A stretch of 64,000 nucleotides of DNA from an archaeon GW2011_AR15 (GCA_000830295.1 CP010425.1:832001-896000); one strand, 5' to 3'; shown: positions 1,390 to 24,935, numbered from the stretch's first letter. Program-made: numbers and translations. Notes: generated from the sequence alone by a model not told the origin.

Positions 1390-3126
1390 ATGGAAGATTC
1401 AAGGAAGATACATTATTTCTTTTTGGTTCTTGTATTCCTGTTTGGGTGCTACGGGGCATATGTAAATTATAAGGTCCTGCAGGAAGACACTACCCCCTTT
1501 ATTTATGATATCCTGAATAGCTATGTGACAAGCATTGATCATTACAGGTTCCTACAGCAGGGAGATATCATAGGATTTATCAATCATTACATCACTAAAT
1601 ATTCACGGGACTATCCTGCACTTTATATGTTCCAGACTTTTCCTTTCTATGCTATCTTTGGGATCAGCGAAGATGCCGCAGCTATGTCCAATACAATTTA
1701 TCTTTTCATCCTTCTATTTTCAGTATATTTCATAGGAAAGAAAATGAAGAATTCCTATGCAGGTTTTCTTTCAGCTTCAATAGTACTCTTCATTCCCGGA
1801 GTGCTGTCTTTCTCCAGGGTTTACCTTCCTGACTTCGGTCTTGCAGCATTTTTTCTGTTAAGCCTGGCTCTTTTCCTTTATTCTGACTTTTTTAGAGATA
1901 GGAAGTACTCTATCCTTTTTGGGGCCTCTGCAGGGCTTGGCATGCTCATCAAATATACCTTTTTTGTGTATATTGGAGTGGCTCTGTTCATATTATACTT
2001 AAGGCATCTTAAGAACGAAAAAAAACTTCTTCTCACTAAACAGCAAAGAAGCAATCTCATGATTTCACTGTCTATTGCAGTTTTATTTATGCTATTGTGG
2101 TACCCCATGAATTTTTTAAATGCTCTTGGGTATATCACAAGAAAATCTTCTTATGATGCTACTGTGGCATTTAATGATACAGGCATATTTCAAAGATGGA
2201 ATCTTGTAATGGATAGGTATGTCTTTGAGATGAATGACATGCTGGCGGGATTTGTTTATCCTGTTTTTTTGATAATAGTATTATTACTCCTGGAAAAAGT
2301 TTTTTCCCGCCGAAAGACCCAGGAAAAGAAAACAATAGAACTGCAAGACCTGGTCTACATCTCACTTATTATTTTTTTATTCTCCCTGAATTCCACGGCA
2401 TCTGTAAGATATCTAATATTTATGCTGCCTTTTGCAGCCCTGCTCATTGGAGTTTACATATACACTAAATTTGATATTTTTCTCGGTTATTTTAAGAACA
2501 GGAATGAGACAAAATTCATGGTATTTGTGCTTCTTGTACTCCTTCTTGTATCATCAGCAGGCTCATATTACAGCGCATGGCTTGAACAAAAAAAACCTGC
2601 AGAAATAGCAGATGACATATTCATATATGGACTCCAGGTGCCAAAACACCACCATAATAAGCATATAGAAATTATTGAAGCAATAAACAGAAGAATGGAA
2701 GGACTCAACGGCCTTTCTGTGCTTTCATTCCAGGAGTCTGAGGTTATGTATATTGTATCTCATTCCAAGCACCTGTCGGGCTACGGCTATGAATTTCCGC
2801 CTGCCTGCCTTACGACTCCAGATTACGTCGACAGGGGAAGCTGTTATATCCCGGAGGAAATAAACTGCGATTGGTATTTCCTGCAGAATGATATTATAAT
2901 AGACTCAGACATCCATACAAGCATAAAGACGGCTGAAGTATGGGCCAAGTTCCCTGAAAGAAAAGAAATCCTGGACGAGATTCTTAATGTGTGGGAAAGC
3001 TGCAAGGAAAATTATATCCTGGCGGAAACAATAGAGGATGTGCCTGTTTTAACAAGCTATATCCCCAGAGAGTATACAAATTCGACATTGTATCTGTATG
3101 TGAAAAAATCCAAGCTTAGTTCTTAA
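1390..3126 (+). CDS. Multi-TM GT-C fold glycosyltransferase (ArnT/PMT-like)
   Basis: About 11-12 hydrophobic segments; YPALY loop, SRVYLPD, GLGMLIKY and RYLIFMLP motifs typical of ArnT/PMT-like proteins; soluble C-terminal domain. Confidence 0.75.
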   Translation: MEDSRKIHYFFLVLVFLFGCYGAYVNYKVLQEDTTPFIYDILNSYVTSIDHYRFLQQGDIIGFINHYITKYSRDYPALYMFQTFPFYAIFGISEDAAAMSNTIYLFILLFSVYFIGKKMKNSYAGFLSASIVLFIPGVLSFSRVYLPDFGLAAFFLLSLALFLYSDFFRDRKYSILFGASAGLGMLIKYTFFVYIGVALFILYLRHLKNEKKLLLTKQQRSNLMISLSIAVLFMLLWYPMNFLNALGYITRKSSYDATVAFNDTGIFQRWNLVMDRYVFEMNDMLAGFVYPVFLIIVLLLLEKVFSRRKTQEKKTIELQDLVYISLIIFLFSLNSTASVRYLIFMLPFAALLIGVYIYTKFDIFLGYFKNRNETKFMVFVLLVLLLVSSAGSYYSAWLEQKKPAEIADDIFIYGLQVPKHHHNKHIEIIEAINRRMEGLNGLSVLSFQESEVMYIVSHSKHLSGYGYEFPPACLTTPDYVDRGSCYIPEEINCDWYFLQNDIIIDSDIHTSIKTAEVWAKFPERKEILDEILNVWESCKENYILAETIEDVPVLTSYIPREYTNSTLYLYVKKSKLSS

Positions 3127-4519
3127 TCATGCTTATGCCGGCTTTAACATATCTCTCCAGCTCAGGAAGAGACTGCACTCTTGACAGCGTCCTCAGAACA
3201 AAAGAAGGCCTGAAATAGAACTCCATGTATGCTTTCTTTATCCACCTGTTAAGCTCTTTATCAGACATTCCGCATCTTAGCCTTGGAAGAGGATGCTCAA
3301 CTCCTCTGTCTTTCACATATTCCCTCCAGTAATCATATCCCATCTCAGACTTGAGCTCTTCATACATTGTCGTGCCAGGGAGGGTGCTTAATCTGTTGAA
3401 CTGGGCATAGTCAAGCGGGAGGGATTTTGCAAGGTTTATTGTATTTCTTATTGATTGCCTTGTTTCCCCCGGATTGCCAAACATGAAGTAGCCGAAAGCA
3501 AGTATCCTGTGCTTTTTCGTCAGGTAAATTGCTTTTCTTATCTGCTGCTTTTTTGTGAATTTTTTTATGTTTCTTAAGATCTGTTCATCCCCTGATTCAA
3601 TGCCGAAGTAGATCCTATAGCAGCCTGCCTTCTTCATCTCTATCAGCATCTCTTCATCTATTGTGTCAACCCTTGACCTGCAGGACCAGGCAATTCTTAT
3701 CTTTCTTTTTTGTATTTCCATGCATATCTCTATTACCCTTTTCTTGTTTATTGTAAACAGAGGATCAAAAACATCGATTTCCCTTACTTTGTACCTGTAA
3801 TAGCATTCTTCCATCTCATCAGCAACATTCTTTGCGCTCCTGTACCTTATGTCGCCGCTTCTCTGCTCGCAGAAAGTGCACTGGAAAGTGCAGCCTCTGC
3901 TGGACATCAGGATTGTGTAATTCCTGTATTTTGAGATGAATGAATAATATTTGCTCATCGGGAGGAGATTCCTTGCCGGGAAAGGTATACTGTCGAGGTC
4001 TTTTATCTTCTCCCTTGGTTCCGTCAACACAATTTTTTTATTTTCCCTGTAACATATCCCTTTTACGGTTTTCAATGATTTTTTCTTCTCTATCTTTCCA
4101 AGAACCTCAATAATGGACTTTTCAGCCTCTCCGACAATGCCGATATCTATCACCTTTTTTAGCAGGGTTTCTTTAGGGAACAAGGTGACATGCTGTCCTC
4201 CTACAATAACTTTTGCGGGCCATTTTTCCCTGAAATAGCCAATTACCCTGGCTGTCTCGTGAAAAAGGTAGGTTGTGACTGTGAACATCATTATATCCGG
4301 CCTGAATTTTATTACTCTTTCAGCCATGTCATTTAGAGAATAGCCTGAAGCCATCCCGTCAAGAAAAATAAGCTCGTGGCCTGCTTTCTGCAGTGCCCCT
4401 GCAACATAGGCCAGGCTGATATTCGGGTAGATACCATAGTTGTCTGCAACCGCCTTTATATTCGGCTGATTGACTACCGAGACAACTCCAAAAGCAGGGT
4501 AAATAAGCGCAATCCTCAT
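3116..4519 (-). CDS. Cobalamin-binding radical SAM protein
   Basis: YPNISLAY, GGQHVT, GEAE; SRGCTFQCTFC; FGIESG. Confidence 0.9.
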   Translation of the reverse strand: MRIALIYPAFGVVSVVNQPNIKAVADNYGIYPNISLAYVAGALQKAGHELIFLDGMASGYSLNDMAERVIKFRPDIMMFTVTTYLFHETARVIGYFREKWPAKVIVGGQHVTLFPKETLLKKVIDIGIVGEAEKSIIEVLGKIEKKKSLKTVKGICYRENKKIVLTEPREKIKDLDSIPFPARNLLPMSKYYSFISKYRNYTILMSSRGCTFQCTFCEQRSGDIRYRSAKNVADEMEECYYRYKVREIDVFDPLFTINKKRVIEICMEIQKRKIRIAWSCRSRVDTIDEEMLIEMKKAGCYRIYFGIESGDEQILRNIKKFTKKQQIRKAIYLTKKHRILAFGYFMFGNPGETRQSIRNTINLAKSLPLDYAQFNRLSTLPGTTMYEELKSEMGYDYWREYVKDRGVEHPLPRLRCGMSDKELNRWIKKAYMEFYFRPSFVLRTLSRVQSLPELERYVKAGISMIKN

Positions 4520-4557: not shown

Positions 4558-4764
4558 CTAGTCAAGATATCCGAGGGATTTCAGCCTTTCTGCAATCTCA
4601 GTCTGGTTGTATTCTCTGCTTTCACCGGTGTAGTTGGTATCTTGATTGCCTTTATTTCTCAGCAAATAGACAATCTCCTCTTTGTTACTATAAACGAACA
4701 GAGAGATAATTACCAGGAATAAAATTACAGCGATTATAATCAATTTTTTTATTGAGTGTTCCAT
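4558..4764 (-). CDS. Small membrane-anchored protein ending in RLKSLGYLD
   Basis: 68 aa, one N-terminal TM segment, overlaps the upstream gene by 16 bp; C-terminal motif shared with neighbouring genes. Confidence 0.7.
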   Translation of the reverse strand: MEHSIKKLIIIAVILFLVIISLFVYSNKEEIVYLLRNKGNQDTNYTGESREYNQTEIAERLKSLGYLD

Positions 4765-5948
4765 ATTCCCATTAGCCTGTTAATCCTTTCTTTCTCCATT
4801 CTGGACGACCGGTATATAGTCTCCCTTTTTCCCTGCCTGTTGAAATAAGGGAACCAGTATTCCCATACAATCTCTTTATCCGGGGTGACTTCTATTACAT
4901 GGCCTTTCTCGCTCTCTGAAATCAATGTGTTCCCATTAGGCAGCCTCTGGACAGAGCCCATAGACTCGCTGAAAAAGCTGTCAGGCGGATTGCCTGTATA
5001 ATTCCAGACAATCTCCTGCTTCAGCGGGTCCAGCTCAAGCACTCTGGAATAATCTCTCGTTTCTCCTCCGTTGTCAAAAAGGAGTATGTTTCCGTTTGCC
5101 AGCATCGTAGGCATATGAGTGCCTTCCAGAAAATCAGGCCCTGATGCCCACACAATCTCTTTTGAATCTTTATCCAGGATAATCAGCAGGTTGACATTAT
5201 GCAGGCTCAAAAGCATGTTTCCCTGCTGAAACCTGCTGTCTGTCTGGTCCAGGCTATTTTCAGGCAGCTCCTGGACAGAGTTTATGTGATAATAGTCATA
5301 TATATCTATATTGTCATCTTCTTTGGCAAACAATTTTGCCCATATGTATTCCGGAATTTCAAGGCTGGATTCATAATGGCGTTTTCTAATCTCATCAAAA
5401 TGGTCAAATGTTGACCACCTGTCTATTGTCTCCCCGGTTTCAGATATTCTTATTATGCTGTCAAATAATACTTTTCTGCCCTTATAGGCTTTCTTTTCCC
5501 TTGATATTGTCAGGAAAGTGTGATTGTATGACCTCCTCATGTCATGGTGAATCATTATGTTTTTTTTCAAGAGCAATGAAAAATTTTTGTCATATAGTGC
5601 AAAATAGTTGTCATTGCCTCCCCAATCCCCGTCAGCTACTACCCCGTCATCAAATAATATCTGCAGGTTCCCGTCTCCGGGGAGAGTCACCAAAAGGTTG
5701 CCTTCCATATCGATTATAAACCTGCCGTCAACTACAGTGTAGCCGTCATATGCCCTGTCTTTGTCATAAAGCACAACTCCAGACAGGTTCCTGTCCTGCA
5801 CATCTTCTGTGTATTCCAGATAAGGAAGAGACCTTAATTTCTCAAGCCCGAGCTGGGACCTATACTCAGCTTCCATATATGAAGAAAACACTGAAAAGAG
5901 TCCAAATAGGATGAGCAGCACAATGCCGAAGATAAGTATCCTTTTCAT
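4749..5948 (-). CDS. Arylsulfotransferase (ASST-like beta-propeller), membrane-anchored
   Basis: N-terminal TM; IHHD, YHINSV, THMPTML..GNILLFDNG, SRVLELDP, GSVQRLPNGNTLI propeller repeats. Confidence 0.85.
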   Translation of the reverse strand: MKRILIFGIVLLILFGLFSVFSSYMEAEYRSQLGLEKLRSLPYLEYTEDVQDRNLSGVVLYDKDRAYDGYTVVDGRFIIDMEGNLLVTLPGDGNLQILFDDGVVADGDWGGNDNYFALYDKNFSLLLKKNIMIHHDMRRSYNHTFLTISREKKAYKGRKVLFDSIIRISETGETIDRWSTFDHFDEIRKRHYESSLEIPEYIWAKLFAKEDDNIDIYDYYHINSVQELPENSLDQTDSRFQQGNMLLSLHNVNLLIILDKDSKEIVWASGPDFLEGTHMPTMLANGNILLFDNGGETRDYSRVLELDPLKQEIVWNYTGNPPDSFFSESMGSVQRLPNGNTLISESEKGHVIEVTPDKEIVWEYWFPYFNRQGKRETIYRSSRMEKERINRLMGIWNTQ

Positions 5949-5949
5949 A

Positions 5950-6756
5950 TTACATATAGCCGAGGCTTCTCAGTTTCTGCATATTATATTCTTTCTCTGT
6001 GTCCCTGCCCTGCCTTTCTGAGTTTCTGTCTTTGTCTATCTCCTTTATTATTTTGTCGATTGTATCTGCTCTGGATTTTACAGGGGAAGAGCAGCATTTG
6101 CAGCCGATGCTCCTGAACCTTTTCCCGTCTTTGGCAAAATACAGATTCACGACAGGGATATTCTCTTTTTTTATGTATTGCCAGATATCCAGCTCTGTCC
6201 AGTGGAGTAAAGGGTGTATCCTCACATGGTTGGAGTCTTTGAATTCTGTTGCATATATATCCCATCCTGACAGTTCTGCATCCTGAGCTGAGCCTATGCC
6301 TGCTTCATTCTTCTCTTCTTTCGTGACATTCCACCTGAATTCCCTGTCTCTTGGGGAGAAATATCTTTCCATGCCCCTTATTGAATTCTCGTCTCTCCTT
6401 ATGCCTACTATAACTGCATCGAATTTGTGCTTTTCAATCTCCTTTTTCAGTATCTCGGTTTTTCTTGACGTGCATGTTTTTTCTTTGAACTTTTCTTCGC
6501 TTTTCCCGACCACCAGGTCAAGTTTCCACTCTTTTGCAATCCTGTCCCTGAATTCATATGTTTCCTCATACTCTGTTTCAGTATCTATGTGCAGGACTTT
6601 GAAGGGGATCTCGTCGTAGAATGCTTTTCTGCAGAGATACAGCAATGTAGTGGAATCTTTCCCTATGCTCCACAGCACAACAGGGTTCTTAAATCTCTTC
6701 TTTACTTCCCGGAGTATGAAGATTGATTTGCTTTCTAAATCCTTCAAATTTGCCAT
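5950..6756 (-). CDS. cysD: Sulfate adenylyltransferase subunit 2 (PAPS reductase-like fold)
   Basis: WSIGKDS PP-loop, HIDT, GIRRDE..R..ERYFSPR, RIHPLLHWTELDIWQYI, RFRSIGC. Confidence 0.88.
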   Translation of the reverse strand: MANLKDLESKSIFILREVKKRFKNPVVLWSIGKDSTTLLYLCRKAFYDEIPFKVLHIDTETEYEETYEFRDRIAKEWKLDLVVGKSEEKFKEKTCTSRKTEILKKEIEKHKFDAVIVGIRRDENSIRGMERYFSPRDREFRWNVTKEEKNEAGIGSAQDAELSGWDIYATEFKDSNHVRIHPLLHWTELDIWQYIKKENIPVVNLYFAKDGKRFRSIGCKCCSSPVKSRADTIDKIIKEIDKDRNSERQGRDTEKEYNMQKLRSLGYM

Positions 6757-6802
6757 TGGATAAATTATTCTATATCTGGTTTATCAATCTTTCTTTTTGA
6801 TT

Positions 6803-8089
6803 TTAAATGAGATATCCAAGGGAGAGAATTCTTTTTCTGATCTCATCACTTACATCATGCTCCCTTTCCGCAATTCCTATCTTTTCCCTGAGTTTGTCAT
6901 TCCTCTGCAAAAACTTGAGGTATTCATCTTCAAATCTTTTGCCCGGATACAGCAGGCTATTTTTTTCAAGAGGGTCATTGGAAAGGTTGTAGTATTCAAA
7001 GTAATCGGGCCTTAATATATATTTTTCAGTTTCAGTCCTTATCGAGATTCCGCCCCTTGTTTCTGTAAAGAGAAATTCATGGAGCCTGTCTTTTTTTCCT
7101 GCAATTAAATCATATGTGCTTTTTCCCTGGAATGTTTTTGGCAACCTGTATCCGAGCGTATGCAGTATTGTTGGTGCGATATCCAGGGACTGGACCTGGG
7201 CAGTGATTCTTTTTACATTTACATCAACTTCTTCAGGAAACCTTATTATCATGGGGACTTTGATTATCTCCTCATACGGGTCGCCAAGCCCGTGGCCTAT
7301 TTTTCCGTGCTCCAGGAATTCTTCCCCATGGTCTGATGTGAAAATTAGTATTGTATTGTCCAGAAGTTCAAGTTCTTCCAGCTTACTATATAACCTTCCA
7401 ATATACTGGTCATATTCATGCAGCTCAGAATCATAGGCGTTTTTTATTATTTCAACATCACTTTCATTTAATATGCTGAATTCCTCTTCCTCCCACAAAT
7501 CAAAATCAGGCTTGCTCATGTTTAGTATCTTGCTCGGCTGGTTGTATACATGAGTGTCATATGAATGTATGAAAAGGAAAAACCTCCTGTCTTTCACTTC
7601 CTCAAGATGCTTTATCAGCTTTGGGTAAAAATCAGAAAAGGACTGCCCTTCTTCATCATCAAAGAAATCAAATCCTTGGTCGTATCCGAAGTCCCTGCTG
7701 ACAAAAACATCCCCGGTATAGCCGAAGGTGTAGTATCCCTTTCCCCGCAGGAACTTCTGTATTGTCATTGTGTTCGGGTTTATGAAATTGTCAACTGAGA
7801 GGACGCCGTGTGCTGAGCCGTATAAAGAAGCCAGCATGCTCACATGCGAAGGCAGGGTCCAGTCATAATTCACAAAGGCATTCTCGAACAATACGCCTTT
7901 TTCAGCCAGCCTGTCTATGTTTGGGGTCACATTGCTGTTTCCATAGGCTCCAAGACGGTCTGCCCTTAGGGTATCCTCGGATATCAGGATTACATTATAC
8001 TCCTTTGGCTTTTGGATTACATCTGCAATTACAGTTATAGAGATTACGACAGTTATAAGCAGGAAAAAGAAAATCAGGACTTTTTTCAT
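6803..8089 (-). CDS. Sulfatase-like hydrolase/transferase (no formylglycine CxPxR motif)
   Basis: N-terminal TM; DTLRAD, TPNIDRLA, WTLPSH, TSDHGEEF, DIAPT; C-terminal RILSLGYLI. Confidence 0.85.
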   Translation of the reverse strand: MKKVLIFFFLLITVVISITVIADVIQKPKEYNVILISEDTLRADRLGAYGNSNVTPNIDRLAEKGVLFENAFVNYDWTLPSHVSMLASLYGSAHGVLSVDNFINPNTMTIQKFLRGKGYYTFGYTGDVFVSRDFGYDQGFDFFDDEEGQSFSDFYPKLIKHLEEVKDRRFFLFIHSYDTHVYNQPSKILNMSKPDFDLWEEEEFSILNESDVEIIKNAYDSELHEYDQYIGRLYSKLEELELLDNTILIFTSDHGEEFLEHGKIGHGLGDPYEEIIKVPMIIRFPEEVDVNVKRITAQVQSLDIAPTILHTLGYRLPKTFQGKSTYDLIAGKKDRLHEFLFTETRGGISIRTETEKYILRPDYFEYYNLSNDPLEKNSLLYPGKRFEDEYLKFLQRNDKLREKIGIAEREHDVSDEIRKRILSLGYLI

Positions 8090-9990
8090 TTTAAGAGAGG
8101 CTTGCCGTCAATCTGCTCTGGCATACTTATATTCAGGAAATTCAGCACCGTCGGCGCAATGTCAACAAGGCTGGCTGAGTCCTGATTGATCTGTTTATTT
8201 GAAAACAAGACACCAGGCACAAATGTCGGGTCTATAAGATGGTCTCCCTGCCATTTTTTTGTGTTGTCAAGTATTGCATTCCTCGTGAATCCGCCGATTG
8301 CGGACTGCCATTCCATCCTGTATCCCGGATTGAAGCCTATTATGAGGTCAGGGGCATTCTCAAGCGAGTCTCCGGAATAGATGTCTCCTCTCCTGTAAAC
8401 CTTATTTATAACTTTCCTTCCTGTTTTTGGGTCTGTCAGATTTTCAAGCTTTTCAATTATCTCATTTTCCACTGCCTCTTTATCATCTATGCTTACTGTC
8501 CCGTGCTTTTCCCTTCCTTCAAGATTTATGTATATGCTGGAGAAGCCGACAGAATATGCTTTTGTCTCATCCCATATCACATACTCAAACAGGCTGTCTT
8601 CCACACCCTGCTTTATTACTGTGTTAAGCTTCATGAATCCGTTCTGGGAAAGCCAGGTGTTTATGTTGACAGCGCGCTCAAATGAGCTGAATCCGTGGTC
8701 TGAAAAAATCAGGACCATGGTGTCATTGCCTACTTCTTTCATTATCTTGCCAAGCAGCTCGTCTTTCCTCATATAGTAGCCTGTGAGGACCTCATTCATG
8801 ACAATCTCATCAGAGATGTTGGTCAGCACTTTGTTGTCCCAGAAAAGATGCTGCAGCCTGTCAGATGAATCAAATGCAAATGCCAGCACACCGGTTTCCT
8901 TCTCCTTGAATTCATTGAATTCTTTCCAGAACATGGCTTCCCTTTCCTTTTCTATTTCATAGACCTGGCTGAGGAATGCTTTTTCATCTAGGAAGCCGTT
9001 TACATATCCATCGGTTTCTTCAGGCATCCCTAAAGTGTAATACAGCCCGAGCTCATCTGCCAGCTCCTTTGCATAACCTTTGGGTGAAGAAATATCAACA
9101 ATGGGGTTTGTCGGGTCAATCTGGACTGTTGTTATGTACATCTGGAAGGGTTCAGTGCTTATCAGGTATGCCTTGAACATGCCGTGCACACTCCTGAGGA
9201 AACCGGCATCAAACTTCACTTTTACCCAGTCGCTCCATTTCTCCCTGTCCAGCTGGTACTCCCTTCCGTCTATGGTTAGTATGGCAGAATATTCGTCTGT
9301 TATTTCAATATCCATGCCTTCTTTTACGTCCTCTATTTTGCTGAATTTCCTGACTTTTGGGCCGAGGACATTGGTGTGAATTGACGAGCCTTCTTTTGTT
9401 ACATGTATTACTTTCTGCTTGTCTATATCTTCTTCTGTGTAGAAAGCATAGCCGCTCAGGAACCCCTTTATGTCAGGGACTCCAAGGCCCGAGAACAGGT
9501 TTCCATTAACCTTTTCAGGCGGAAAAGTTGCAGGCCACCTTATTACTGAAGTCGGAATTCCTGCCTTGCTTGTAAGTTCCCAGAAAGGGGTTGCCCTTAT
9601 CAGAGAGGCATAGCTTCCTCCGAATCCTTTCTGGCTTGTTATTGAAAGCTCAGGGAGGTAGGTCTGCGGATCCCTTATTATGAAATCAAACATATTGTGC
9701 TTCCCAGGATTTGTCCCTGTGGAGATTGAAGTCCAGGCAACAGGGCTTTCAGGAGGATTGCTTGTTTCAAGCTTCAGGAATGCACCTGTTTCAGCCAGTT
9801 TCTTGAAATTTGGAAGTTTTCCTTCTGCCATAAGCTTGGCAGTTGCCTTATAATCCATGGCATCTATCCCAATAAGAAGAACCTTGCCTTTTGGACTGAT
9901 TTTATCTCCCCCCTTTGAAAGCGCAAATATGAAATACAGGATAACTACAATAACCACGACGTTAATAAACCTTTTTAATGCCTTATTCAT
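8086..9990 (-). CDS. Alkaline phosphatase superfamily protein (type I phosphodiesterase/nucleotide pyrophosphatase-like)
   Basis: IGIDAMD, PPESPVAWTSISTGTNPGKH, DRLQHLFW, SDHGF, GDH, DIAPT. Confidence 0.85.
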   Translation of the reverse strand: MNKALKRFINVVVIVVILYFIFALSKGGDKISPKGKVLLIGIDAMDYKATAKLMAEGKLPNFKKLAETGAFLKLETSNPPESPVAWTSISTGTNPGKHNMFDFIIRDPQTYLPELSITSQKGFGGSYASLIRATPFWELTSKAGIPTSVIRWPATFPPEKVNGNLFSGLGVPDIKGFLSGYAFYTEEDIDKQKVIHVTKEGSSIHTNVLGPKVRKFSKIEDVKEGMDIEITDEYSAILTIDGREYQLDREKWSDWVKVKFDAGFLRSVHGMFKAYLISTEPFQMYITTVQIDPTNPIVDISSPKGYAKELADELGLYYTLGMPEETDGYVNGFLDEKAFLSQVYEIEKEREAMFWKEFNEFKEKETGVLAFAFDSSDRLQHLFWDNKVLTNISDEIVMNEVLTGYYMRKDELLGKIMKEVGNDTMVLIFSDHGFSSFERAVNINTWLSQNGFMKLNTVIKQGVEDSLFEYVIWDETKAYSVGFSSIYINLEGREKHGTVSIDDKEAVENEIIEKLENLTDPKTGRKVINKVYRRGDIYSGDSLENAPDLIIGFNPGYRMEWQSAIGGFTRNAILDNTKKWQGDHLIDPTFVPGVLFSNKQINQDSASLVDIAPTVLNFLNISMPEQIDGKPLLK

Positions 9991-10181
9991 TTTTTGCTGT
10001 TCTTCAGTCTCTTTATTATGTTTTTTACAGGGTTTATTATCAGGAAGGCTATGACTGCCCCCAGAACAGCCACAATCGTCTGCCAGAAAGAGCCGATTAT
10101 AATCCCGCCGGTTCCCGGGTCAATGTATGCGTAGCTACTGTGAACTAACAATATGAAAATCACTAAATATGTCCCCCACAT
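9987..10181 (-). CDS. Small membrane protein with AYIDPGTG motif
   Basis: 64 aa: signal-like N-terminus, YIDPGTG, second hydrophobic segment, basic tail; ATGA overlap with the next gene. Confidence 0.7.
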   Translation of the reverse strand: MWGTYLVIFILLVHSSYAYIDPGTGGIIIGSFWQTIVAVLGAVIAFLIINPVKNIIKRLKNSKK

Positions 10182-10268
10182 TTGTATTTAAGTTACCCGA
10201 GGAGTATTTAAACGTTTTGATTGGTTTTGATGAAAGAATATTTAAAGAGAGAAAATTTAGTTTGTGAA

Positions 10269-11498
10269 ATGGAATTCAAGAAAGAAATATTACTTTTCCT
10301 TATTTTTATACAAATTGTTGCAGTTTTATTTCTTGGATTTAATATGGTAAAAGACACTTATTTATCAAATAATTCTTATAAATGTAAAGAATGCAATATA
10401 GTACTCATAATTATAGATACAGTGAGAGCAGATCACATTAGCTTTTATGGTTACCATAAAAATACAACACCTAACTTAGATAGTCTCGCAAAGAAAGGAG
10501 TTTTTTTTAACCAGGCAATTAGCCAGGGGTCCTGGACAGCGACATCAGTACCTTCTTTAATTACCTCCAGATACCCTTCGACAATCGAGGTTTACCTATT
10601 TTCAGATACGAATATATTAGCAAGAGAGATACCAACTCTCCCAAAGGTATTGCAAAAAAAAGGTTATAGAACAGCGTTTATCAGTTCTCACCCACTTCTG
10701 TTTGTAGAAGAGGTAGGTATGTTTGAAACATTCATAAAATCCGATGGTGCTAAGGCAGATAACTTAACAAACGAGGCAATTCAATGGATCAGAGAAAATG
10801 GTGAAGATAGATTTTTTCTACAACTACATTATATGGATGTGCATGATATTCCTTTCTTTGGTAATCAAACTACCTTGGAAGAAGGCATCTCAATGTATGA
10901 TGAAGCACTTACATTTACCGATTCAAACATAAACAGACTTATAGAAGAACTTAATAAACTAGGCATAGAAGATAAAACGATTATAGTTTTTACATCAGAC
11001 CATGGAGAGGGGATAAATGACCACGAACAACTGTTTGAACATAGTGCATACTTGTATGATTATTTAATAAATGTTCCACTAATAATCTACAATCCAAAAG
11101 CAAAAATTACAGGATACAACGTAGATTGTCAAGTTCAGCTTGTGGATATTGTTCCAACCATGTTAAATATTCTAGGAGTAAAAGAACAAGAGTCATTTCA
11201 AGGTAAAAACTTATTCCAATACACTCAATTTGATGTTTGTACAGACTCTTCAATTAGTGAGCACATACAATTTGAGTTTTATCCTGATGATGCAATATAC
11301 CTTTATGAACTTAAATCGTTTAGGGTTGGTAAGTGGCATCTAATACAAAACCTTAGCTCAGAAAAAGAACCATTTGAATTGTATAATCTAGAAGAAGATG
11401 CCAGAGAATTAAATAACCTTATAGATAATTATACAGAGCTTAAACCAGAGTTAAATACTGAAATAATAAAAAGAATAGAGAACAGAACTTTAATCTAG
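10269..11498 (+). CDS. Sulfatase-like hydrolase/transferase
   Basis: DTVRADH, TPNLDSLA, WTATS, HYMDVH, TSDHGE, DIVPT; ATG at 10269 preferred over the TTG at 10221 because a TATA-like TATTTAAA lies about 30 bp upstream. Confidence 0.82.
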   Translation: MEFKKEILLFLIFIQIVAVLFLGFNMVKDTYLSNNSYKCKECNIVLIIIDTVRADHISFYGYHKNTTPNLDSLAKKGVFFNQAISQGSWTATSVPSLITSRYPSTIEVYLFSDTNILAREIPTLPKVLQKKGYRTAFISSHPLLFVEEVGMFETFIKSDGAKADNLTNEAIQWIRENGEDRFFLQLHYMDVHDIPFFGNQTTLEEGISMYDEALTFTDSNINRLIEELNKLGIEDKTIIVFTSDHGEGINDHEQLFEHSAYLYDYLINVPLIIYNPKAKITGYNVDCQVQLVDIVPTMLNILGVKEQESFQGKNLFQYTQFDVCTDSSISEHIQFEFYPDDAIYLYELKSFRVGKWHLIQNLSSEKEPFELYNLEEDARELNNLIDNYTELKPELNTEIIKRIENRTLI

Positions 11499-22967: not shown

Positions 22968-24935
22968 TTATTTATTAATTTCCCACCTGCTGTCCAGATA
23001 AACAATGCCTAAATCTCTTATCTCCCTGCTCTTTACTTCAAACGAGTATCTCTTATCATGCAGGTCATAAGGCGTGAATGAATTATACGGATGGACAGCA
23101 GCACTAACCAGGTAGGTCCCTTCCAGCAAAGGCAGCTTATCTATGATATAGGAGACGCTCCCTTTTCCCTTAACATAGGGGATTTCAATATTGTGGAATT
23201 TAGTATTCGGCCCTGTTATCTGCGTTCCGTCATCTCCATGGATTGTTATGCCGAAAACAGGCTTTTCAACCTTCTTTTCAGCATCAAACATAATTTTTAT
23301 CTTGACCTGTTCCCCGGTATAAAACAACTCTTTATGCTCTTCTTTTGAATCCAGAAAAACCACATTTGTTATCCTGACAGGTCTCTGTTCTTTCTCATCA
23401 TCCTCTTTTACTGATATTGATAATTTTGTTAATTCTTTCCTAAATTCAAGCAATCTCTCCAGTTCTTTTTCTATTTTTTTCTTTTCAGCCGGTTTTGCCT
23501 CTTCTAGCTCAAGCTTATGCACACTAATTAGTTCATGCAGCTCGTGCAGATGTGTTCTTATAATACCGGATATCTGGTTCTCGTTATCTTCAGGGTCAAA
23601 ATGCGGGACAGTTTTGAGCATATTTTTGCATTCTTTTATTGAATGGATTATAGAAGCAAACTCAGAGTTATCTATCCTGAGTGAGATCAGGAAGTCAAAC
23701 ATATATTTCCGCAGATAGACCGCGCTTGGCTTGTCAACATGATTGAATCCCTCTTTGTATCTGGCAAACACTCTGGAAATAACTTCTTCCCTTTCCTTTT
23801 CTGCTGTCTGCAGCTGGACTTCCATCTCCAGCAGCCTTATTCCCAGAAGTATCTCTTCAAACTCAAAAGATTTTTTTGTAACAGCCTGCTTTATAGTCAG
23901 CGCTTCCTGCGCCTGCTTCAGGTTCTCCAGCAATTCCTTTTTCTGCTGGGGAGAGAAATTCTTTACTTTGTTTTCCAGCCAGACATAATTCTTGTCAGGA
24001 AGAATGATAAGCATGTCGCACAGGTCAATAAGCTGTGATCTTAAGGTTGCTTCCCGATATCCCAATGATTCCAGCTGCTTTTCCAGCCTGCTTCCCATGA
24101 AACTGTCTATAATAGGGAGATTGATTTTTCTTTTCAGATCTTTTCTTAATTTTTGAGTTTCATCTGAAACTGAAAGATATGATTTGAAATTCTTCTTCAG
24201 CAAAAAGTAATTGTAAACCCTTTCTGATTTTTCGCTGTGATTCAGATAATCCAGTATAACTTTCTGCGCAACTCCCTGGCTTTTCACGACTCCGTGCTCA
24301 AGAAAAATTGCCCTGTCACAGATTTCCCTTACTGTTGACATGTCATGGCTCACAATGACCATTGTTTTTCCCTGCTCTTTCATTATCCTTATCCTGTTCA
24401 GGCTTTTTTTCTGGAATTCCTCATCACCAACTGCAAGAATCTCATCTATCAGGATCACTTCAGGGTTATTTGACATTGCTATTGCAAAAGCCAGCCTGAG
24501 CTTCATGCCTGTGGAGTAATCTTTAAGCTTGACATTGATGAATTTTTCAAGCTGCGAGAAGTCTACTATCCTGCTGAAATTCTTCTTTATCTCAGAAGTG
24601 CTCATCCCAAGTATTGAGCCATATAAAAAGACATTTTCCTTCCCAGTCAGTTCCTCCCTGAACCCAGAGCCTGTATCAAGGAAAGTCAGCACTTTTCCGT
24701 TTACTTTTACATTTCCTTTTGTCGGAGACAAAATTCCCGCGATTACCTTGAGAAGGGTTGTTTTTCCTGAGCCATTCGGGCCGATTATGCCAAGGCACTC
24801 CCCTTTTTTCACAGCTAAATTAATGTTCTTCAGGGCATAGAAATCTTCTTTTTCTGATTTTCCAATAAGCATGCTGTCTTTTTCATGGATCAGGTTAAAT
24901 TTCTTAGACACGTTTTTCAGTTCTACAGTATTCAT
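22968..24935 (-). CDS. wzt: Polysaccharide ABC exporter ATPase with C-terminal Wzt carbohydrate-binding domain and long helical insert
   Basis: GPNGSGKTT, YSTGMKLRLAF, LIDEILAVGD; C-terminal Ig-like domain (PVFGITI…LPLLEGTYLVSAAV…YD). Confidence 0.9.
   Translation of the reverse strand: MNTVELKNVSKKFNLIHEKDSMLIGKSEKEDFYALKNINLAVKKGECLGIIGPNGSGKTTLLKVIAGILSPTKGNVKVNGKVLTFLDTGSGFREELTGKENVFLYGSILGMSTSEIKKNFSRIVDFSQLEKFINVKLKDYSTGMKLRLAFAIAMSNNPEVILIDEILAVGDEEFQKKSLNRIRIMKEQGKTMVIVSHDMSTVREICDRAIFLEHGVVKSQGVAQKVILDYLNHSEKSERVYNYFLLKKNFKSYLSVSDETQKLRKDLKRKINLPIIDSFMGSRLEKQLESLGYREATLRSQLIDLCDMLIILPDKNYVWLENKVKNFSPQQKKELLENLKQAQEALTIKQAVTKKSFEFEEILLGIRLLEMEVQLQTAEKEREEVISRVFARYKEGFNHVDKPSAVYLRKYMFDFLISLRIDNSEFASIIHSIKECKNMLKTVPHFDPEDNENQISGIIRTHLHELHELISVHKLELEEAKPAEKKKIEKELERLLEFRKELTKLSISVKEDDEKEQRPVRITNVVFLDSKEEHKELFYTGEQVKIKIMFDAEKKVEKPVFGITIHGDDGTQITGPNTKFHNIEIPYVKGKGSVSYIIDKLPLLEGTYLVSAAVHPYNSFTPYDLHDKRYSFEVKSREIRDLGIVYLDSRWEINK

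Follow-up and report, generated by a model that had tools for sequence, protein, structure and literature searches.

A short LGY tail carried by enzymes and small proteins around a CysN-less CysD: a possible docking handle in archaea and bacteria

The genome of the groundwater archaeon GW2011_AR15 is a single contig of 1,157,790 bp, and the present analysis concerns a 64,000-nucleotide stretch of it (GCA_000830295.1, CP010425.1:832001-896000), hereafter the window. A preliminary description of the window had claimed that four consecutive co-oriented genes between positions 4558 and 8089 carry the same short motif, L-x-x-L-(G/P)-Y, and our translations match each of the copies it listed. The four genes belong to an operon of six tightly packed genes, all on the minus strand, that runs from 10181 to 4558:

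9987..10181, minus strand: 64-residue two-helix membrane protein with Y-I-D-P-G-T-G between the helices (translation of the open reading frame, ORF)
8086..9990, minus strand: AP634, a membrane-anchored NPP/alkaline phosphatase (AlkP)-type enzyme of 634 residues (PF01663, 5.5e-38)
6803..8089, minus strand: membrane-anchored sulfatase-fold enzyme of 428 residues with a C-terminal LGY tail (PF00884, 7.2e-43)
5950..6756, minus strand: CysD-like protein of the short, CysN-less type, 268 residues (PF01507; NF003587, 279.9 bits)
4749..5948, minus strand: membrane-anchored arylsulfotransferase (ASST)-like beta-propeller of 399 residues (PF14269, 1.2e-25; PF05935, 2.4e-14)
4558..4764, minus strand: 68-residue microprotein with an N-terminal membrane helix, a linker of about 35 residues and an LGY tail (no Pfam or NCBIfam match)

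The six genes are packed as one operon. ATGA overlaps join the 64-residue ORF to AP634 and AP634 to the sulfatase-like gene, a gap of 1 nt separates cysD from the ASST gene, and the latter overlaps the 68-residue ORF by 16 nt. The family assignments made earlier for the ASST-like, CysD-like and sulfatase-like proteins (PF14269/PF05935, PF01507/NF003587 and PF00884, respectively) were borne out.

Three of the motif copies are C-terminal. The 68-residue protein ends in ERLKSLGYLD (4561-4590, with Tyr66 at 4567-4569), the CysD-like protein in MQKLRSLGYM (5953-5982), and the sulfatase-like protein in RKRILSLGYLI (6806-6838). The fourth copy, EKLRSLPYLEY, occupies residues 36-46 of the ASST-like protein (5811-5843, with Tyr43 at 5820-5822), right after its N-terminal hydrophobic helix. 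When the 7210 six-frame ORFs of at least 40 residues from the whole genome were scanned, the strict pattern [LIVMF][RKQ][SAT]L[GP]Y gave only three matches. Since all three fall in this operon, the clustering of the motif is not due to chance. A looser pattern gave 19 matches in the genome, five of them within the four genes, though one of these five, an HTLGY in the interior of the sulfatase-like protein, is unrelated. AP634 ends in ...DGKPLLK and carries no LGY tail, though its family usually has one.

The name 'sulfatase-like' stands as far as the fold is concerned, and Foldseek places the model among S1 sulfatases and phosphonate monoester hydrolases (about 1e-24). It does not extend to the active site: the nucleophile position holds Thr (T-L-P-S-H), with T78 invariant in 13 of 13 aligned homologues, and therefore a Cys/Ser-x-Pro-x-Arg formylglycine motif is absent. 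In the AlphaFold2 (AF2) model, the mean predicted local distance difference test (pLDDT) value is 86.8, and the tail helix (residues 415-424, pLDDT 53-63) does not pack on its own domain.

The ASST-like protein is modelled with a mean pLDDT of 90.5. Its best Foldseek matches, Cpz4 (9kf4; 1.6e-18, TM-score 0.62) and E. coli ASST (3elq), confirm the fold, and H135, H221 and H278 are invariant in all 30 aligned homologues. In its AF2 model, E-K-L-R-S-L ends the long anchor helix (pLDDT 66-68), and P-Y-L-E-Y enters the first propeller strand (residues 41-50, pLDDT 86). The stretch S-L-P-Y-[LI]-x-Y follows the anchor in five of five ASST homologues from related genomes. We also collected 80 ASST loci from public genomes and examined 71, leaving out nine whose match did not cover the N-terminal part or sat at the edge of a contig. 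L-x-x-[LIVA]-[GP]-Y precedes the propeller in 24 of the 71, from Methanosarcinales to Planctomycetota, Acidobacteriota and Omnitrophota; forms that have no anchor lack it, and the 47 without it are mostly of that kind. Gly and Pro interchange at this site, as both R-A-L-G-Y-V and R-S-L-P-Y-L were found. By raw pattern count, a tail-bearing neighbour accompanies six of the 24 motif-bearing and two of the 47 motif-less proteins; by our reading, four of the six are real (L065, L075, L079 and L141) and neither of the two is.

Beyond this genome, the C-terminal form appears as a cassette of about 20 residues with the consensus [YFL]-[ST]-x-E-[ED]-E-x-x-[IV]-x-E-R-L-[KR]-x-L-G-Y-[LIVM], followed by zero to two further residues (in the tail logo, nine sequences reading G-L-G-Y are mis-anchored). 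Judged by such matches, the motif is not special to the present locus and is wide in bacteria and archaea. Longer proteins that share words with the anchored peptides include PF01663 AlkP-type proteins ending in ...E-R-L-K-S-L-G-Y-[IV]-x. A profile of the tail together with the adjoining AlkP C-terminal part, two of its rows contributing about 80 positions of that domain, returned 1849 representatives at E <= 0.001 from a base of 1.84 billion representatives. In each of the 147 proteins newly returned, the chain closes with G-Y and one to three further residues. Eighty-six of them are full length (at least 480 residues), and a hydrophobic N-terminus is present in two of these 86; therefore, this LGY-tailed AlkP-type family, which we take to be COG3379-like, would be mainly cytoplasmic. 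Both members that were tested match PF01663, and the nearest solved structure is PafA (E 0.003), with none closer. The tails of the 68-residue and sulfatase-like proteins match the tail profile with E values of 4.7e-8 and 3.3e-7, respectively, both being rows of that profile; CysD was not reported by it at E <= 0.01. The preliminary description had made the conservation of the Tyr a decisive point, and no tail, N-terminal motif or CysD end examined has lost it (147 of 147 tails and 26 of 26 CysD ends, as well as the ASST motifs). The first half of the tail is net negative in 17 of 20 sequences, and the second half is net positive in 15 of 20. A description of the tail as a strongly amphipathic helix was dropped, the hydrophobic moment not being above that of shuffled sequences. 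No published account of an LGY tail was found at the level of titles and abstract beginnings.

The same tail also ends small proteins of 61 to 133 residues that consist of one or two ribbon-helix-helix (RHH)-like units. This assignment is of moderate confidence: P0034 scores 27.5 bits with RHH_1, the other small tailed proteins lie below the cut-off or give no match, and P0009 is labelled a CopG family regulator by one source. In two genomes (G200 and G032), genes for tail-less cytoplasmic AlkP or sulfatase-like proteins flank the RHH-plus-tail gene.

The 68-residue microprotein belongs to a second kind of small tailed protein. A single-sequence search with it returned only itself, its sequence being identical on 30 contigs, and a protein-atlas look-up gave no usable feature match, the structure matches covering the membrane helix only. 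Six relatives were found by genome searches and an alignment search; an anchored-peptide profile run over 401 genomes was swamped by membrane-helix matches, and no counts were drawn from it. The relatives are as follows:

Genome G002: two anchor-plus-tail peptides, 68 and 43 residues
Genome G001: anchor-plus-tail peptide, 62 residues
Genome G005: anchor-plus-tail peptide, 65 residues
Genome G337: anchor-plus-tail peptide, 76 residues
Metagenome protein P0005: anchor-plus-tail peptide, 68 residues

All are built alike: a few basic residues lead into a single membrane helix, which a linker of varying sequence connects to [ED]-R-L-[KR]-x-L-G-Y plus zero to two residues. Thus, the ORF has intact homologues and is no deletion remnant, a point on which the preliminary description had staked its proposal. 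One to four positive charges precede the hydrophobic helix in six of six peptides, and by the positive-inside rule, we infer that the N-terminus of the 68-residue protein lies inside and its tail outside. Its linker (4591-4690) holds two N-x-T sequons, and an N-x-S/T sequon lies 9 to 14 residues before the tail in four of the six peptides (shuffle-based chance of at least four, 0.025). This is a weak hint, which would fit an outward-facing, glycosylated linker.

The neighbours of these peptides also follow the earlier expectation of a link with sulfatase-like genes: stand-alone anchor-plus-LGY peptides adjoin sulfatase-like and cysD genes. The peptide gene stands directly after cysD in G001, G005 and G337, and it faces a gene for a tail-less sulfatase-fold protein in G002 (two loci), G005 and G337. 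Elsewhere the tail is fused to the enzyme itself, namely on sulfatase-fold proteins of the present genome (G000) and of G005 (L019), and on bacterial sulfatase-fold proteins beside ASST genes in Pirellulales (L079) and Myxococcota (L141). Such unannotated small proteins, with an anchor or an apparent RHH domain plus the tail, enlarge the inventory of functional microproteins. As separate observations, a membrane-anchored gene of the GDSL/SGNH family (PF13472) follows the peptide gene in G001 (L016:1748-2686, plus strand), with no MBOAT gene seen there; GDSL/SGNH is the family of DltD and PatB. Furthermore, a PVC-group bacterium encodes a lysine-rich 37-residue ORF ending in ...L-K-E-R-L-K-S-L-G-Y-M (L074:1188-1301, plus strand), which sits between an ASST gene and an AlkP-type gene with a Y-I-D-P-G-T-G hairpin.

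The CysD copy had been suspected of being coincidental, and this proves half right. The window CysD scores 279.9 bits against an NF003587 cut-off of 195, while remaining below the cut-offs of two stricter CysD models, and it aligns with P. syringae CysD (1ZUN chain A) at 2e-51, its tail reaching the very C-terminus of that chain. The solved P. syringae end reads ...K-K-R-Q-G, and G-Y plus one residue is common to it and the window CysD. Because the window CysD aligns to the end of the 1ZUN chain, G-Y-(F/M) is ancestral in CysD. The Leu residues at -2 and -5 are another matter. CysD proteins linked to CysN end in L-R-[RK]-[ED]-G-Y-M in five of five cases (loci L159-L163), whereas short CysD proteins end in L-R-x-L-G-Y-M in 20 of 21 cases, the remaining one ending in F-G-Y-M. 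Therefore, the Leu stripe is a trait of the CysN-less type. The available parts of PMC5770160 and PMC4373884 do not describe a role for the CysD C-terminus in the solved CysDN complex.

Genome-wide, GW2011_AR15 has no APS (adenosine 5′-phosphosulfate) kinase, no Sat-type ATP sulfurylase, and no CysN over cut-off; the best TIGR02034 (CysN) match (282 bits against a cut-off of 336) is not adjacent to cysD and is, by our reading, a translation factor. Thus, 3′-phosphoadenosine 5′-phosphosulfate (PAPS) cannot be made by known routes and cannot be the sulfate donor here.

How often the tail and CysD occur together was measured across 401 sampled genomes from the phylum, taking the tail and CysD searches to cover the same 401. 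The tail-only profile matched 54 genomes and CysD 45, of which 38 have the short type; in the other seven, the match is confined to the query's C-terminal half. We examined five of these seven loci, and in all five, genes for a GTPase-like protein of 590-610 residues and a protein of 190-205 residues stand beside cysD; from their motifs, we read these as CysN and APS kinase. Tail matches occur in 26 of the 38 short-CysD genomes, in none of the seven others, and in 28 of the 356 without CysD. The difference between 26 of 38 and 28 of 363 corresponds to p 4e-17, a value that overstates the link, since related genomes are not independent. With genomes flagged as unpublished left out, the figures become 24 of 36 and 27 of 359. 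For 19 of the 26 short-CysD genomes with a tail match, no more than 2.5 kb separates that match from cysD. Among 15 loci selected for tail and CysD matches on one contig, the RHH-plus-tail gene is immediately upstream of cysD in 11 (L144, L146-L154 and L156, from DPANN genomes), a PF01663-like gene is present in eight (by BLAST to references), and a TauE-like permease gene comes right after cysD in five. Some TauE-like permeases (L013, L145 and L150) carry I-K-x-x-L-K-x-L-G-Y-x-E-S-F-K in a loop, with Tyr replaced by Val in one; three further ones are without the L-K-x-L-G-Y stretch.

How can one motif serve enzymes of unrelated fold and small proteins alike? We tentatively propose that the LGY motif is a portable, self-capped docking helix, present as a fusion on some enzymes and borne by small proteins in other cases. 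A docking tag was among the options named in the preliminary description, and of the readings considered here it appears the best, although it may still prove wrong. The split and fused forms, together with the unpacked tail of the model, point to such a docking or assembly handle; a tail helix held off its own domain is what would be expected of an element acting in trans. The tail would be a single self-contained helix that starts from a Ser/Thr N-cap, turns from acidic to basic halfway along and closes with a Gly C-cap; a narrow Leu/Leu/Tyr stripe would run along it. It would serve as a handle for an unstudied set of enzymes around CysN-less CysD, that is, the PF01663/PF00884 alkaline phosphatase (AP)-superfamily enzymes and the membrane-anchored ASST-like propellers. 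On both sides of the membrane, enzymes with no tail of their own may receive it in trans from small adaptors, which have an RHH domain in the cytoplasm and a single membrane helix outside. The 68-residue protein would then be a membrane-anchored adaptor, whose tail shares one docking partner with the tail fused to the sulfatase-like enzyme. Candidates for this partner are an AP-type catalytic domain and a second tail or motif helix; through such contacts the outer enzymes would stay assembled at the membrane.

Several observations sit uneasily with the docking helix. No binding partner was identified. The Tyr is strict and never Phe, which is more than a hydrophobic cap needs. None of the 20 tails beats 95% of its shuffles in hydrophobic moment. 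The motif lies on both sides of the membrane, and therefore either two receptors or self-binding would have to be assumed. As P-Y-L-E-Y enters the propeller, the ASST copy may be a fixed structural junction. Besides, about 80 AlkP positions were in the larger profile, so that the figure of 1849 counts the AlkP family and not the tail alone. Three-chain co-folding of the sulfatase-like protein (residues 26-428), the ASST-like protein (24-399) and the peptide (27-68), run with no controls, scored 0.00 and is evidence neither for nor against.

The tail might instead be a covalent shuttle, in which its Tyr takes a sulfuryl- or phosphoryl-type group between active sites, much as the tails of DltX and MBOAT proteins take acyl groups. 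We consider this unlikely. Its appeal lies in the Tyr being kept in all tails, ASST motifs and CysD ends, in the peptide genes placed directly after cysD in three genomes, and in the flexible tether on which the modelled tail of the sulfatase-like enzyme sits. The split and fused pattern also parallels that of DltX and PatA, whose short Tyr motif is split off in some pathways and fused to an enzyme in others (PMC12148441). Passing sulfate to the tail Tyr would, on the CysD side, pull the unfavourable synthesis of APS, and on the donor side, sulfo-Tyr tails would act as aryl-sulfate donors for ASST or Thr-type AP enzymes. ASSTs are PAPS-independent and use aryl sulfates as donors, which suits a genome where PAPS is not the donor. 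In its fullest form, the LGY Tyr would be a protein-borne sulfuryl carrier. A CysD with neither CysN nor APS kinase would drive sulfate activation by handing the sulfate of newly formed APS to it, and the sulfo-Tyr tails, on enzymes or on small proteins (one kind membrane-anchored and turned outward), would donate to ASST-like and Thr-type AP transferases; we regard that complete scheme as rather unlikely. If true, however, it would amount to a PAPS-independent route for the sulfation of surface glycans in bacteria and archaea.

Conservation and compartment both speak against the shuttle. Conservation at L-5, L-2 and G-1 is about equal to that of the Tyr, a pattern that fits a helix cap, and CysD enzymes partnered with CysN also keep G-Y-(F/M). 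The Tyr of the peptide is predicted to lie outside and CysD inside, with no conduit or membrane transfer component evident in the locus. The same tail is found on small proteins of DNA-binding type. As for a carrier feeding ASST in particular, the tail is present on cytoplasmic RHH and AlkP-type proteins in genomes where no ASST was found, and G005, which is 94% complete, has the peptide and no ASST match to the window query.

Regulation offers another explanation, namely that the tail is a pseudosubstrate or sensor that binds the active site of CysD or of an AP-type enzyme. Carried by an RHH protein, it would make transcription of the cysD operon respond to enzyme state; carried by an enzyme or by the membrane peptide, it would act as an autoinhibitor or a competitor. 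In favour of such a sensor, 11 of the 15 selected loci have the RHH-plus-tail gene as the neighbour just before cysD, and CysN-less CysD has a look-alike tail. It leaves unexplained, however, the tails on proteins predicted to face outward, and the RHH assignment on which it leans is only moderate. We hold it to be distinctly unlikely.

More improbable still is that L-x-x-L-G-Y is simply a common helix ending (a Gly cap with a hydrophobic staple) acquired independently in each family, with no shared partner. G-Y-(F/M) being ancestral in CysD agrees with this, as do the ASST copy that runs into the propeller fold, a weak match of the P0034 tail to PF08823, a peptidoglycan-binding domain, at its first helix (E 0.001), and the similar L-K-x-L-G-Y in permease loops, with its one Tyr-to-Val change. 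Independent acquisition would not account for the three strict matches of the whole genome lying in one operon, for the split and fused forms, for the association with short CysD (even with its p-value overstated), or for small proteins that conserve nothing but an anchor or fold and the tail. Finally, that the 68-residue ORF is the remnant of a sulfatase-like gene which kept anchor and tail is hardly credible: its build of anchor, short linker and tail does mimic both ends of the neighbouring sulfatase-like protein, but the split-or-fused relation of the tail rules against a remnant, as do the six intact relatives (43-76 residues, five genomes and one metagenome protein by our tally) with their conserved positions, a pair of relatives that keep length, sequon and tail at about 80% identity, and start codons tightly coupled to the preceding gene.

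The surroundings of the operon are a glycan locus, with the following further features:

1390-3126: PMT_2/Agl23-like membrane protein
3116-4519: B12 radical SAM enzyme
10221-11498, plus strand: second membrane-anchored sulfatase-fold paralogue (32% identity), nucleophile site W-T-A-T-S
22968-24935, minus strand: Wzt-type ABC ATPase with a Wzt_C domain, which marks a glycan-export region

The paralogue ends in ...T-E-I-I-K-R-I-E-N-R-T-L-I, without L-G-Y, and may have a decayed tail. The Wzt-type ATPase contains an internal L-E-K-Q-L-E-S-L-G-Y at residue 288, which we read as chance. The 64-residue hairpin protein that opens the operon is a second split-or-fused module of the same operon. The Y-I-D-P-G-T-G hairpin is fused to the N-termini of AlkP-type proteins in bacterial ASST loci (L074, L075 and L079) and to the N-terminus of an ASST in L071; in G005, it forms a stand-alone protein of 73 residues before the AP gene.

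Archaea and bacteria commonly carry sulfated glycans on their surfaces. The genome studied here, however, has CysD without a route to PAPS. The LGY tail joins one recurring set of genes, from DPANN archaea to Planctomycetota and Omnitrophota, that comprises an orphan CysD, two types of AP-superfamily enzyme, ASST-like propellers and two kinds of small protein. Thus, a 20-residue peptide gives a concrete handle on the partners and the donor chemistry of a possibly undescribed sulfation route. If the tail only docks, no new mechanism is gained, and its value lies in flagging such loci.

The sulfatase-like protein shares its fold with S1 sulfatases, whose formylglycine motif it lacks. The ASST-like protein has its beta-propeller in common with Cpz4 (9kf4, 9kf6) and E. 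coli ASST (3elq) at an identity of about 20% or less; in contrast to them, it is membrane-anchored and carries L-(G/P)-Y between anchor and propeller. With the P. syringae CysD-CysN complex (PDB 1ZUN), the window CysD shares the PP-loop domain and the G-Y plus one residue at the chain end, whereas the partner GTPase CysN is missing.

DltX is the closest parallel for the microprotein. Both are microproteins of one membrane helix with an invariant Tyr near an extracellular C-terminus (here predicted), and DltX acts in the modification of a cell-envelope polymer. The motif of DltX and PatA is F-x-Y-x-x-F, as against L-[KR]-x-L-G-Y-[LIVM] here; the Tyr is invariant in both and the flanks differ. 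DltX and PatA serve acyl transfer, whereas the LGY tail is also found on cytoplasmic proteins, and no covalent adduct of it is known. Furthermore, the DltX system has MBOAT and SGNH partners, neither of which is among the Pfam matches of eight neighbouring ORFs in the window, and there is no DltC here.

For the docking helix itself, the AP superfamily offers a precedent, since its arylsulfatases and phosphonate monoester hydrolases have C-terminal extensions for oligomerisation. These are likewise C-terminal appendages on the same fold that act between subunits. They are, however, longer and specific to their families, whereas the LGY tail is a 20-residue cassette common to unrelated folds and small proteins.

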